Of a DNA stretch of 8,206 nt, positions 2,237 through 6,960 are shown piece after piece. Position numbers and translations under genes: made by a program. Position 1 is the stretch's first letter. Each line of letters begins with the position of its first letter. Source of the DNA: a virus (taxonomy: Duplodnaviria > Heunggongvirae > Uroviricota > Caudoviricetes); IMG/VR virus record IMGVR_UViG_2585427776_000003. One strand, 5' to 3'. The notes under the pieces are model-generated. The model was given only the letters and a program-made list of their open reading frames with translations. It was not told where the DNA came from and did not search any database.

Positions 2237-2620
2237 ATGCGTGATATTCAGATGGTTCTTGAGCGTTGGGGAGCGTGGGCGGCTAATAATCATGAAGATG
2301 TGACCTGGTCGTCCATTGCCGCCGGTTTTAAGGGATTAATTACTTCAAAAGTAAAATCTCGCCCGCAATGTTGTGACGATGACGCGATGATTATTTGCGG
2401 GTGCATGGCCCGTCTGAAAAAGAACAACAGCGATTTGCACGATTTATTAGTAGATTATTATGTAGTCGGTATGACATTCATGTCACTGGCAGGTAAGCAT
2501 TGCTGCTCTGATGGTTATATCGGGAAAAGGTTACAGAAGGCTGAGGGCATAATTGAAGGGATGTTAATGGCATTAGATATCCGGTTAGAGATGGATATCG
2601 TTGTTAATAACTCTAATTAA
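2237..2620 (+). CDS. quuD: late-gene antiterminator Q-like protein (127 aa)
   Basis: ATG at 2237 with GGAG at 2226-2229 (7-nt spacing). Product [22 protein letters not shown]... has a Cys-rich segment ([16 protein letters not shown]...HCCSDG) and sits at the Q position immediately upstream of the late region. The track ORF starts at an upstream TTG (2222). Confidence 0.85.
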
Positions 2621-2653
2621 TATGCCAATTGTTTACTAAAAATTATTAAAAAT

Positions 2654-2671
2654 GGGGCGTTGCAACGCCCC
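2654..2671. repeat. perfect 18-bp palindrome GGGGCGTTGCAACGCCCC; followed on the minus strand by a U-rich tract (candidate leftward intrinsic terminator or protein-binding site)
   Basis: Read directly: the sequence equals its own reverse complement. The minus-strand RNA would be hairpin + AUUUUUAAUAAUUUUU; the plus-strand RNA has no U-tract after it. Confidence 0.6.
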
Positions 2672-2759
2672 CAAAAATAAAGGGTAATATATAACAGAAG
2701 GTTTATATAGTTAGAAGCAAGGTTGTGCTCCTAAAGGAAGTGGCTTGAGGGAGCCACTT

Positions 2760-2798
2760 ATATGTTGGGGAGGCAAAGCCTCCCGCAACATATCTTTT
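2760..2798 (+). terminator. candidate rho-independent terminator (tR'-like) downstream of Q
   Basis: 15-bp stem ATATGTTGGGGAGGC / GCCTCCC-g-CAACATAT with AAA loop and one bulge, followed by CTTTT. A second 8-bp hairpin (AAGTGGCT...AGCCACTT, 2738-2759) lies just upstream. Located about 140-180 bp after the quuD stop and just past the nmpC stop on the other strand. Confidence 0.55.
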
Positions 2799-2808
2799 AG
2801 TAATCAAA

Positions 2809-3891
2809 TTAGAACTGGTAAACCATACCTACAGCAACGATATCATCGGTAGCAACGCCAGATGCTTTCGTGAAATCGCTCTTATCAATCAGGTTGATTT
2901 TGTAATCAACAAAAGTGGACATATTTTTGTTGAAGTAATAGGTTGCACCTACATCAATATATTCAACCAGGTCCTGATCACCCCACGCACCCAAGTCTTT
3001 TCCTTTAGATTGCAGGTAAGCAACGGACGGACGCAGACCGAAGTCGAACTGATATTGTGCAACTACTTCGAAGTTTTGTGCTTTGTTGGCAATATGGTTA
3101 TTACCAAAAACAGTCATGTTCTGGGTTTCAGAATAGGTGGTAGCCAGATAGATGTTGTTCGCATCATATTTCAGACCAGCTGCCCATACTTCAGCATTTT
3201 GACCAGATGCATTCAGGCTGTTGTTACCGTAGATAACCTGATTATTAGTGCGGTCAGATTTAGCATAGGTTGCACCTACACCGAATCCTTCATACTCATA
3301 AGTAGTGGAGAAACCGAAACCATCACCATTAGCTTCAGTTACGTCAGTGCGGTCATTTTTACCCTGATACTGAGCAGCAAAGTTCAGACCATCAACCAGA
3401 CCAAAGAAGTCGTTGTTACGATAAGTTGCAACACCAGTGGTGCGACCAGTCATGAACACATCTGTTTGGGTCCAGGTATCGCCACCGAATTCTGGCAGAA
3501 CGTCAGTCCACGCACCGATGTCATATGCTACACCGTAGTTACGGCCGTAATCGATTGAGCCGTAGTCCCCGAATTTCAGGCCTGCAAATGCAAGACGGGT
3601 TTTGTCTTTGGAGGAGCCTTGAGATTCAGCGCGGTTGCCTTTGAATTCATATTCCCACTGACCGAAACCAGTCAGTTGATCGTTGATTTGGGTTTCACCT
3701 TTGAAGCCAAGACGGGCATAAGTAGTATCACCATCATCTGCATCATTAGAGGAGAAGTAGTGCTTGGCATTAACTTTCCCATATAGATCCAGCTTGTTAC
3801 TGTCTTTATTATAAATTTCAGCTGCCTGAGCAGACATCGCCATCAGTACTGATGCAGCTACAGCAGAAATTGCCACTGTTAATTTTTTCAT
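2809..3891 (-). CDS. nmpC: OmpC/OmpF/PhoE-family general porin (NmpC/OmpD-like), apparently intact
   Basis: Signal peptide [23 protein letters not shown], then mature N-terminus [17 protein letters not shown]. Aromatic/Gly-rich beta-barrel pattern and C-terminus ...GMVYQF with the terminal Phe typical of OMP barrels. Start taken at ATG 3891 (complement); the track ORF to 3951 adds 20 unlikely residues. Confidence 0.93.
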
Positions 3892-4478
3892 CGTGAGCCC
3901 TTTTTTTGAACTATTATTAAAAAATGATGTCACTGCGCGATAAATATTCATCTAATCAATGTGATTATTTCAAGATGTAAGTTTTAGTTTCTCATTTAAT
4001 TTGTGAAGTAGATCTCTATTTTTATCTGAACTTTTTCTATCGAAACCTATTTGTGGCTCTTATTTGAACAAAAGTAAACCTATTAGCTAATTTATATTAA
4101 TAGTTGTTATTTATGGAGGCTCTATAATTCGGCAGTTTAATTTAAATCAACTAAAAATAACGCCTGAAATTATTTATTGGTTATTTGTTGAGGTTTTCTT
4201 ATGTATTTGTGGTGGTGTTTTGAACACTCGGTAGCATTCTCATAAATATCATTCAGTGGTTTACGTACGTAAAAAATTGGTTATGCTGTTAAGAGTGGTT
4301 ACTTCGTCACACAGCTTAAACCCGCCGTCGAGCTGGTTTTTCCATTTTCTGAGTCTCGATATTAGCTGATAACTCAATACCTGAGTTATTCACTGACTCC
4401 GAGTCTGTTACGTTTCTGCTTTTTTGCGATACGTTGTATTCCCTCAATTTACACCCGCTTTGTCTGCGAGGTGGGGTT
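3892..4478. promoter_or_regulatory. AT-rich intergenic region (~590 bp) upstream of nmpC on the minus strand and upstream of the lysis cassette on the plus strand; promoter(s) not resolved
   Basis: Visibly AT-rich with many A/T runs (3900-4260 especially) and no convincing ORF. The minus strand contains GGTTTACTTTTGTTCAAATAAG (plus-strand complement around 4059-4080), which resembles OmpR-box half-sites of porin promoters. Confidence 0.4.
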
Positions 4479-4694
4479 ATGAAATCCATGGATAAGTTAA
4501 CAACGGGTGTCGCCTATGGCACCTCAGCAGGTAGTGCCGGTTACTGGTTTTTACAGCTGCTCGATAAAGTCACGCCCTCACAGTGGGCAGCAATAGGTGT
4601 GCTGGGTAGCCTGGTATTTGGCCTGCTGACGTACCTGACAAACCTTTATTTCAAGATTAAAGAAGATAAGCGCAAGGCTGCGAGAGGTGAATAA
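4479..4694 (+). CDS. essD: class II holin of the phage-21 S21 pinholin type, dual-start (antiholin from Met1, holin from Met4)
   Basis: ATG AAA TCC ATG GAT gives MKSMDK. Two hydrophobic segments ([18 protein letters not shown] and [18 protein letters not shown]) and a basic C-tail [11 protein letters not shown]. The track ORF from 4434 adds an upstream in-frame ATG. Confidence 0.9.
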
Positions 4695-5191
4695 TGCCTC
4701 CATCATTACGAAAAGCCGTTGCTGCTGCTATTGGTGGCGGAGCAATTGCTATAGCATCAGTGTTAATCACTGGCCCAAGTGGTAACGATGGTCTGGAAGG
4801 TGTCAGCTACATACCATACAAAGATATTGTTGGTGTATGGACTGTATGTCACGGGCATACAGGAAAAGACATCATGCTCGGTAAAACGTATACCAAAGCA
4901 GAATGCAAAGCCCTCCTGAATAAAGACCTTGCCACGGTCGCCAGACAAATTAACCCGTACATAAAAGTTGATATACCGGAAACAACGCGCGGCGCTCTTT
5001 ACTCGTTCGTTTACAACGTGGGCGCTGGCAATTTCAGAACATCGACGCTTCTTCGCAAAATAAACCAGGGCGATATCAAAGGCGCATGTGATCAGCTACG
5101 TCGCTGGACATATGCTGGCGGTAAGCAATGGAAAGGTCTCATGACTCGTCGTGAGATTGAGCGTGAAATCTGTTTGTGGGGTCAGCAATGA
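4694..5191 (+). CDS. rrrD: SAR endolysin (T4-lysozyme-fold muramidase, phage 21 R21 / P1 Lyz type)
   Basis: ATG at 4694 overlaps the essD stop (TAATG). N-terminal Gly/Ala-rich weakly hydrophobic SAR segment [20 protein letters not shown], followed by the catalytic triad positions E35, D44, T50 (GLEG...KDIVGVWTV). Confidence 0.93.
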
Positions 5192-5649
5192 ACAGAGTAA
5201 CCGCGATTATCTCCGCTCTGGTTATCTGCATCATCGTCTGCCTGTCATGGGCTGTTAATCATTACCGTGATAACGCCATTACCTACAAAGCCCAGCGCGA
5301 CAAAAATGCCAGAGAACTGAAGCTGGCGAACGCGGCAATTACTGACATGCAGATGCGCCAGCGTGATGTTGCTGCACTGGATGAAAAATACACGAAGGAG
5401 TTAGCTAATGCGAAAGCTGAAAATGATGCTCTGCGTGATGATGTTGCCGCTGGTCGTCGTCGGTTGCACATCAAAGCAGTCTGTCAGTCAGTGCGTGAAG
5501 CCACCACCGCCTCCGGCGTGGATAATGCAGCCTCCCCCCGACTGGCAGACACCGCTGAACGGGATTATTTCACCCTCAGAGAGAGGCTGATCACTATGCA
5601 AAAACAACTGGAAGGAACCCAGAAGTATATTAATGAGCAGTGCAGATAG
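5188..5649 (+). CDS. rzpD: Rz inner-membrane spanin (i-spanin)
   Basis: ATG at 5188 overlaps the rrrD stop (ATGA). N-terminal TM segment [18 protein letters not shown], then a coiled-coil-like, charge-rich periplasmic domain ending ...INEQCR. Confidence 0.9.
5408..5590 (+). CDS. rzoD: Rz1 outer-membrane lipoprotein spanin (o-spanin), embedded in the +1 frame of Rz
   Basis: Strong SD AAGGAG 7 nt upstream of ATG 5408. Lipoprotein signal [20 protein letters not shown] with lipobox VVGC, and a Pro-rich mature part ([15 protein letters not shown]). Lies wholly inside rzpD. Confidence 0.85.
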
Positions 5650-5680
5650 AGTTGCCCATATCGATGGGCAACTCATGCAA

Positions 5681-5974
5681 TTATTGTGAGCAATACACAC
5701 GCGCTTCCAGCGGAGTATAAATGCCTAAAGTAATAAAACCGAGCAATCCATTTACGAATGTTTGCTGGGTTTCTGTTTTAACAACATTTTCTGCGCCGCC
5801 ACAAATTTTGGCTGCATCGACAGTTTTCTTCTGCCCAATTCCAGAAACGAAGAAATGATGGGTGATGGTTTCCTTTGGTGCTACTGCTGCCGGTTTGTTT
5901 TGAACAGTAAACGTCTGTTGAGCACATCCTGTAATAAGCAGGGCCAGCGCAGTAGCGAGTAGCATTTTTTTCAT
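5681..5974 (-). CDS. borD: Bor/Iss-family outer-membrane lipoprotein
   Basis: Product MKKMLLATALALLITGCAQQTF... has a lipoprotein signal with lipobox LITGC. 97 aa, opposite strand immediately after Rz, as for lambda bor. Confidence 0.9.
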   Translation of the reverse strand: MKKMLLATALALLITGCAQQTFTVQNKPAAVAPKETITHHFFVSGIGQKKTVDAAKICGGAENVVKTETQQTFVNGLLGFITLGIYTPLEARVYCSQ

Positions 5975-6264: not shown

Positions 6265-6675
6265 TTAGCGTGGAAAGATTTGTGTAGTGTTCTGAATGCT
6301 CTCAGTAAATAGTAATGAATTATCAAAGGTATAGTAATATCTTTTATGTTCATGGATATTTGTAACCCATCGGAAAACTCCTGCTTTAGCAAGATTTTCC
6401 CTGTATTGCTGAAATGTGATTTCTCTTGATTTCAACCTATCATAGGACGTTTCTATAAGATGCGTGTTTCTTGAGAATTTAACATTTACAACCTTTTTAA
6501 GTCCTTTTATTAACACGGTGTTATCGTTTTCTAACACGATGTGAATATTATCTGTGGCTAGATAGTAAATATAATGTGAGACGTTGTGACGTTTTAGTTC
6601 AGAATAAAACAATTCACAGTTTAAATCTTTTCGCACTTGATCGAATATTTCTTTAAAAATGGCAACCTGAGCCAT
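6265..6675 (-). CDS. ybcV: YbcV-like protein (DUF1398), 136 aa; function unknown
   Basis: Open frame with the best RBS (GGAAGG, 8-nt spacing) ahead of ATG at 6675 ([13 protein letters not shown]...). In-frame upstream alternative starts at 6717 (ATG) and 6798 (GTG) lack an SD. Codon usage is visibly AT-rich compared with neighbouring phage core genes. Confidence 0.8.
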
Positions 6676-6960
6676 TGGTAAAACCTTCCATGTGATACGA
6701 GGGCGCGTAGTTTGCATTATCGTTTTTATCGTTTCAATCTGGTCTGACCTCTTTGTGTTTTGTTGATGATTTATGTCAAATATTAGGAATGTTTTCACTT
6801 AATAGTATTGGTTGCGTAACAAAGTGCGGTCCTGCTGGCATTCTGGAGGGAAATACAACCGACAGATGTATGTAAGGCCAACGTGCTCAAATCTTCATAC
6901 AGAAAGATTTGAAGTAATATTTTAACCGCTAGATGAAGAGCAAGCGCATGGAGCGACAAA

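Follow-up and report, generated by a model that had tools for sequence, protein, structure and literature searches.

Organisation of the locus

The window analysed here is a stretch of 8,206 nucleotides of DNA from a virus of the Caudoviricetes (IMG/VR record IMGVR_UViG_2585427776_000003), to which all coordinates refer unless another record is named. It contains a porin gene that lies between the late-gene antiterminator gene Q and the holin gene. The features of this region, from left to right, are the following.

2237-2620, + strand: late-gene antiterminator Q (quuD type, 127 aa; Pfam Phage_antitermQ, E 4e-53)
2640-2671, - strand: Rho-independent terminator of the porin/ipeX transcript, with a stem at 2671-2654 followed by a U run
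about 2645-2808, - strand: structured 3' UTR of the porin mRNA, the ipeX region, of about 165 nt (from fold and conservation)
2738-2799, + strand: two hairpins, a candidate terminator for transcription leaving Q (from fold; function putative)
2809-3891, - strand: porin coding sequence, lc/nmpC allele (from ORF scan, Pfam, NCBIfam and identity to Lc and NmpC)
2812-3822, - strand: mature porin, with the stop codon at 2809-2811
3823-3891, - strand: porin signal peptide, 23 aa, following the annotation of the PA-2 record
3892-4090, - strand: porin 5' UTR and promoter region, PnmpC (from conservation and the K-12 literature)
about 3999-4019: CRP site in PnmpC, annotated in the PA-2 record and mapped through the alignment
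3908-3940, + strand: putative sigmaE-type promoter directed towards the lysis cassette (from primer mapping and consensus)
4259-4302, + strand: predicted late promoter pR' (from homology to the VT2-Sakai pR' region and invariance in nine alleles)
4312-4341, + strand: promoter-proximal hairpin with U5, which aligns with the first annotated terminator of VT2-Sakai; candidate tR'
4479-4694, + strand: S21-type holin/antiholin gene essD with the dual start MKSM (Pfam Phage_holin_2_1, E 3.5e-35)

The gene order is hence Q (+), ipeX and then the porin (-), the sigmaE-type promoter (+), pR' (+) and the holin (+). An initial annotation of this DNA had described the porin as a moron carried between Q and the lysis cassette on the strand opposite to the late operon. 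The ORF scan and the Pfam matches to the two neighbours bear out this position and orientation of the porin, which would be a self-contained cargo gene.

Q is annotated quuD in matching genomes and gives a distant match to the solved Q21 (E 7.6e-7). Its product shares 78% amino acid identity with Q of VT2-Sakai, and the DNA homology to the Stx-phage Q extends over the first 333 nt. The holin is annotated essD in matching genomes, and the record of phage 434B annotates both the antiholin and the holin starts. To the right of the holin are found the genes for lysozyme, Rz/Rz1 and Bor. A tRNA scan returned zero tRNAs, unlike the Q-stx interval of Stx phages.

At the left end, positions 1-803 are occupied by a fragment of an IS3-family transposase (IS1203/IS629-like, with rve domains), which reaches to about 803 and has eliminated the 5' end of ybcN; similarity to other genomes sets in at 802-804. 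Because this fragment cuts the ybcN/nin region, the early side of this prophage copy is rearranged or defective. Beyond the lysis genes, bor (5681-5974, encoding a serum-resistance lipoprotein) and the DUF1398 gene ybcV (6265-6798) are both antisense to the late operon. The ybcV frame is open for 177 codons here, as against the 136 codons annotated in K-12.

The porin gene and its product

The ORF scan returned one open frame on the - strand, 2809..3951, within which the start chosen in the initial annotation is at 3891. From that start the porin consists of 360 codons, among which the scan found neither a frameshift nor an internal stop, and it ends in ...VYQF followed by TAA at 2809-2811. 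Residues 29-360 match positions 1-337 of the 337 in the Pfam model Porin_1 (PF00267) with an E value of 3.1e-153. With the NCBIfam 'porin OmpC' subfamily model the protein scores 518 bits, for which the cutoff is 484; it does not reach the equivalog cutoffs of the PhoE and OmpF models, and the OmpC model, which has the rank of a 'subfamily', is the only one passed. The translation displays a signal peptide, then AEIYNK, the loop-3 motif PEFGGD and the C-terminal ...VYQF. Residues 24-360 align from first to last with the mature chains of the solved 16-strand porins OmpK37, OmpC, OmpK36, PhoE and OmpF (E 1e-137 to 1e-116), and the protein is accordingly read, by homology only, as the complete 16-strand barrel that the initial annotation had anticipated.

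The window porin is 90% identical to the Lc protein of phage PA-2, 90% identical to NmpC of K-12 over the first 346 codons and 61% identical to OmpC of K-12, figures that confirm the assignment to the OmpC/OmpF family made previously. By these identities the gene at 2809-3891 (-) can be assigned as an intact allele of lc/nmpC, the porin gene of lambdoid phages and prophages, and its product as a general porin of the OmpC/OmpF/PhoE family that forms a putative outer-membrane pore. The lc/nmpC gene, its prophage position, the IS5-split copy of K-12, the ipeX tail and expression from a prophage are all already known from the literature.

The lc gene of PA-2 (GenBank J02580), which encodes the Lc porin or 'protein 2', occupies the same position in the same orientation between Q and the lysis genes. 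The likeness amounts to 91% at the DNA level, from the end of Q to the start of the holin, and to 90% at the protein level, and it includes the same signal peptide, the same 3' UTR and the same spacer with the pR' block. The window porin is five residues shorter than Lc and differs from it mainly within residues 181-265, which should correspond to surface loops, as suggested by a general rather than residue-by-residue comparison with the solved porins. In the DLP12 (qsr') prophage of K-12, the gene is nmpC (b0553) and the shared neighbours are quuD, essD, rrrD, rzpD/rzoD, borD, ybcV, ybcW and ylcI. IS5B interrupts the K-12 copy after codon 346 whereas the window copy is intact, and DLP12 differs further in being without 16 nt at 4416-4431 and in having G rather than T at 4334. 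The chromosomal porins OmpC, OmpF and PhoE belong to the same Porin_1 family and have the same PEFGGD loop-3 motif and C-terminal YQF but, unlike them, the window porin is phage-borne and differently regulated. The locus displays the features of an Lc/NmpC module, namely 90% identity, a position between Q and S21-type lysis genes, the opposite strand, and ipeX with its terminator.

The ends of the porin transcription unit

In K-12, PnmpC is an active sigma70 promoter that is contained within -199..-1 and has a start site confirmed by 5' RACE; activation by Crp and repression by OmpR, IHF and MprA are also cited (PMC11677980). Within the window the block that corresponds to the porin promoter and 5' UTR, at 3899-4060, is almost invariant among nine alleles. 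The terminator of the porin unit was found by the scan, and its promoter is documented for the K-12 allele, with none called here by the consensus scan. That scan covered 2400-4700 and called only the - strand terminator at 2671-2654 along with features inside Q; it missed PnmpC, pR' and a bulged + strand hairpin.

The lysis cassette of DLP12 is reported to be controlled by a Q-type antiterminator and by RpoE, and the RpoE-regulated promoter was cloned for reporters as a fragment described as '-121 to +650' (PMC7918800). The forward primer from that study maps to 3821-3838, inside the codons of the porin signal peptide and pointing right, and on this basis the +1 position is placed near 3940. 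The published fragment covers about 3819-4590 and is wholly on the holin side. A sigmaE-type promoter may be recognised here as tGAACTa at 3908-3913, a spacer of 16 nt, TCAcT at 3930-3934 and, after 5 nt, an A, with +1 at about 3940; the apparent fit of 3908-3940 to the sigmaE consensus is our own reading of the sequence. The sigmaE-like promoter is located within the porin 5' UTR region, about 540 nt ahead of the holin start.

At the other end of the unit is the region assigned to ipeX. The published ipeX is a 167-nt RNA of DLP12 and PA-2 that originates from the porin promoter within the porin transcript, and it lowers OmpC and OmpF according to reviews. As in DLP12 and PA-2, the region begins immediately past the porin stop codon and extends as far as an intrinsic terminator, with a length of about 165 nt here against the 167 nt published, and its sequence is nearly identical to those of K-12 and PA-2 with no notable difference (97% mean column identity). 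The predicted fold has an MFE of -63.2 kcal/mol (z -8.8 against shuffles) and comprises four hairpins and the terminator. An Rfam scan of the whole window at E up to 1 gave zero matches, ipeX being without a curated model, and the region can be assigned as ipeX by its position and sequence identity. The terminator, GGGGCGTTGCAACGCCCC followed by ATTTTTAATA, was called by the terminator scan and folds at -13.9 kcal/mol; the stem is invariant across nine alleles and the variation is confined to the loop. It is situated about 140 nt past the porin stop codon rather than at it, and it ends next to the stop codon of Q.

The gap between Q and the porin is 188 bp (2621-2808) and is the only place in which transcription is convergent. 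On the + strand the pair of hairpins at 2738-2799 folds at -36.2 kcal/mol (z -6.3). The second of these (2760-2793) is followed by CUUUU, and in most alleles the stem is followed by CTTTTT; this hairpin (2760-2799) ends just ahead of the porin stop codon. Each strand of the gap has its own terminator, the candidate at 2760-2799 on the + strand and that at 2671-2640 on the - strand, each beyond the other. The convergent layout proposed in the initial annotation is retained within the gap and is given up for the porin gene itself. A Q transcript that ends at about 2799 and a porin/ipeX transcript that ends at about 2645 would be complementary over about 130-150 nt.

Just past Q, at 2631-2643, is a short sequence, GTTTAC..TAAAAAT, that resembles the -35 region of pR' (GTTTACgtacgTAAAAAAT) at 4259-4276. 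The idea that 2631-2643 is a scar left by insertion of the porin module into an ancestral Q-pR' junction was considered and is unsupported, no empty site having been seen: in 0 of the 5,426 E. coli genomes are the two halves, the 3' end of Q and pR', adjacent at the shared GTTTAC.

The predicted late promoter and the leader of the lysis genes

The position of the late promoter decides how the locus is to be read. When the segment of VT2-Sakai that contains its pR' (L006 1880-2230) was aligned with the whole window, one significant match was returned, at 4259-4341 (63/83 identical, E 2e-11), and in the same alignment the Q-porin gap at 2621-2808 had no match to the VT2-Sakai pR' region. The predicted promoter consists of a -35 element TTTACG at 4260-4265, a 16-nt spacer, a -10 element TATGCT at 4282-4287 and a start at about 4294, and is followed by TAAGAGTGGTTAC. 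This 13-mer is exact in all of the porin-bearing loci and in Sakai. Within the porin-holin spacer of nine alleles, 4257-4390 is invariant apart from one site and 4060-4256 varies; pR' itself (4259-4302) is 100% invariant. In Sakai the start of pR' was mapped by dRNA-seq in the StxS paper to 258 nt upstream of tR', a distance that fits L006 positions 1957 to 2214; the coordinates in that paper belong to an older version of the record and the distance was used in their place. The promoter is placed here by homology to the promoter of a related Q, of which 22% of the residues differ, and the 'qut' segment as annotated in Sakai is different in the window (ACTTCGTC here, ACATTGCC there).

The motif TAAGAGTGGTTAC was also sought in Lambda_2E9, a phage with a related Q, where it is absent and a different pR'/tR' directly follows Q. 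In Lambda_2E9 (L005 2879-3559) the related Q is succeeded by pR' and a Sakai-like tR' and then by an antisense lipocalin (Blc) gene. This Blc gene is an antisense cargo that is truly downstream of the late promoter.

In the window pR' (4260-4294) is 185 nt ahead of the holin. The hairpin at 4312-4341 folds at -15.1 kcal/mol with the G allele, which gives CCCGC/GCGGG and U5 as in VT2-Sakai, and at -9.5 kcal/mol with the T allele of the window. Position 4334 is T in the window, strain 504239, PA-2, Turner and E. coli B, and G in K-12, Perceval, ev243 and JKHS006. Scanning and folding of 4294-4479 yielded no convincing intrinsic terminator, the sole candidate being weakened by T4334, and for this reason the Q-dependence of lysis-gene expression in this copy remains putative. 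The effective tR' of Sakai is further downstream than the first annotated terminator, according to the StxS paper. The 16 nt that K-12 DLP12 is without, at 4416-4431 of the holin leader (CTGCTTTTTTGCGATA), are present in all the other alleles examined.

The porin thus probably lies with Q on one side and pR' on the other, and its transcription diverges from that of the late operon. As both the known and the inferred promoters of the lysis genes are on the holin side of the porin, they would fire away from it. The initial annotation had put the porin in the slot where Stx phages carry stxAB, and the comparison does not sustain this. The stxAB genes of 933W and VT2-Sakai are likewise cargo between Q and the lysis genes, beside a related Q (78%), but they follow pR' and tR', have the orientation of the late operon and depend on Q; the late promoter of VT2-Sakai overlaps the end of Q, with terminators, tRNAs and stx2A after it. 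The window porin, unlike stx, is upstream of pR', on the opposite strand, and has a terminator and, presumably, a promoter of its own. A position downstream of the late promoter and co-transcription with the late genes define the stx slot, whereas here the counterpart of pR' (4259-4341) is past the 5' end of the porin, which is on the opposite strand. The genes bor and ybcV, unlike the porin, would be crossed by late transcription.

Distribution, disruption and selection

The interval 2600-4450, which reaches from the Q end to the holin start, is covered to at least 80% in 2,466 of 5,426 complete E. coli genomes, with a best identity of 99.7% and the annotations quuD, 'porin OmpC' and essD. 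Among phages it occurs in 36 records, one of which is the PA-2 lc record of 1986 (91% identity). The DNA identity of the whole porin module across genomes and phages is 91-99.7%. Known carriers of the lc/nmpC module include PA-2, DLP12/qsr', 434B and Perceval, among others, and in strain STEC17-190 the module is inside a complete-looking lambdoid prophage. In phages that have the same holin without the porin, homology is seen only from about 4463 on, and in phages with related Q genes it is lost at about 2569-2596; from these two breaks it follows that 2597-4462 travels as one module.

The annotation of K-12 MG1655 lists nmpC (b0553) as a pseudogene, with IS5B inserted after codon 346; the disruption by IS5 had been stated in the initial annotation. 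The laboratory phage 434B has the same IS5-split copy, also after codon 346. IS1 is present in the porin gene at two other sites, in E. coli B (C43(DE3)) and in JKHS006. The insertions in the porin, of IS5 and IS1, are at 4592-5786 in locus L003, 366-1560 in L004, 3049-3746 in L011 and 2807-3504 in L012. Such repeated and independent insertion shows the porin to be dispensable in some hosts. A 131-nt probe over the K-12 IS5 site, at the 3' end of the porin, matched without interruption in at least 1,519 of the 5,426 complete E. coli genomes; this probe is blind to IS insertions elsewhere in the gene. Porin copies that are uninterrupted at the IS5 site are common in E. coli.

Comparison of the window porin with five alleles gave pN/pS values of 0.02-0.15 at a synonymous divergence of up to 0.35. 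Codons 1-180 contain 13-21 synonymous differences and 0-2 amino acid changes, and codons 181-275 are far more diverged, with pS up to 0.68. The only differences in the STEC17-190 allele are synonymous and lie in the first half of the gene; their confinement to that half indicates intragenic recombination and mosaic porin alleles. On these ratios the porin is under purifying selection and is functional rather than decaying. NmpC of the prophage Perceval, the module of which is 91% identical to that of the window, is expressed 10-fold above background in lysogenic LF82.

Proposed transcription and role of the porin unit

The window is best explained as carrying an intact lc/nmpC allele that forms a self-contained - strand lysogenic-conversion unit, flanked by Q and pR' and with transcription that does not depend on phage late control, and this explanation is held to be highly likely. 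The unit would have three parts, which are the promoter and 5' UTR (3892-4090), the porin coding sequence (2809-3891) and the ipeX 3' UTR that runs to the terminator (2640-2671). By analogy with what is described for other alleles, it would be transcribed in the lysogen apart from phage late control, and its ipeX tail would lower host OmpC and OmpF, such that the porin set of the outer membrane is swapped for a phage-encoded one. The late promoter (4260-4294) would fire away from the porin, its activity in this copy being presumed, as is that of the sigmaE promoter. Phage PA-2 adsorbs to OmpC and, given this receptor, the swap would also be expected to exclude related phages.

Since pR' lies beyond the 5' end of the porin and is directed to the holin, late transcription is not expected to cross the porin gene. 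Only polymerase that reads on past Q could transcribe the porin in the antisense direction, and the strong + strand hairpin at 2760-2799 stands in its way. A possible though less favoured outcome is that induction does give rise to antisense RNA over the porin, made not from the Q-dependent late promoter but by N-antiterminated early transcripts from pR that run on through Q without stopping at the 2760-2799 hairpin. In lambda, N-modified transcription from pR is established to extend beyond Q, the same module is preceded by an early region in related complete prophages, and the + strand terminator in the gap is of the ordinary intrinsic type that an antiterminated polymerase can ignore. In this copy, however, the nin region is cut by the IS3-family element at about 803, no link to an early promoter is visible in the window, and neither N nor nut elements are found within it.

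A more speculative and rather improbable extension concerns the overlap of the two transcripts in the gap. Base pairing with Q mRNA, or with antiterminated read-through, could on induction eliminate IpeX and the porin mRNA 3' end; in a related manner the overlapping porin and sigmaE-type promoters could exclude each other. Neither the pairing of Q mRNA with IpeX nor the exclusion between the porin and sigmaE promoters is described in the literature consulted. If true, such pairing would tie the porin swap of the lysogen to the lytic switch.

The layout assumed in the initial annotation, in which pR' directly follows Q, the porin occupies the stx slot, and Q-modified late transcription runs antisense through the porin and collides with porin transcription, is very unlikely. 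In lambda-like phages, VT2-Sakai and Lambda_2E9, pR' does immediately follow Q, and the gap has AT-rich -10-like sequences (TAATAT, TATAAC and TATAGT, at 2685-2711), + strand hairpins and the short GTTTAC..TAAAAAT at 2631-2643 that is reminiscent of the -35 region of pR'. Against this, the Sakai pR' region is unmatched in 2621-2808 and has its unique match at 4259-4341, the promoter scan is empty in the gap, the GTTTAC copy at 2631 is without a -10 element at a usable spacing, and the published reporter fragment of the lysis cassette is confined to the holin side. The antisense late transcription deduced from that layout is probably wrong. Least probable of all is that the porin is an inert remnant with no role for phage or host, its frame intact only since the prophage is recent; the independent IS5 and IS1 disruptions in K-12, 434B, E. 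coli B and JKHS006, and the argument that nmpC is not useful to E. coli (PMC11677980), are outweighed by the low pN/pS at such synonymous divergence, the near invariance of the promoter, 5' UTR and 3' UTR, the presence of the gene in free-living phages and its expression in lysogenic LF82.

Significance

The useful outcome of the analysis is a correction, which places the porin outside the Shiga-toxin position. The porin separates Q from the late promoter and is insulated by terminators. Because the porin is upstream of pR' and insulated in this way, induction-dependent antisense interference by late transcription is not expected. For the host of a prophage with the self-contained porin unit described here, the intact copy means that it may make a third major porin, and less OmpC and OmpF. 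An additional porin, or less OmpC and OmpF, bears on sensitivity to phages and colicins and on permeability to antibiotics.
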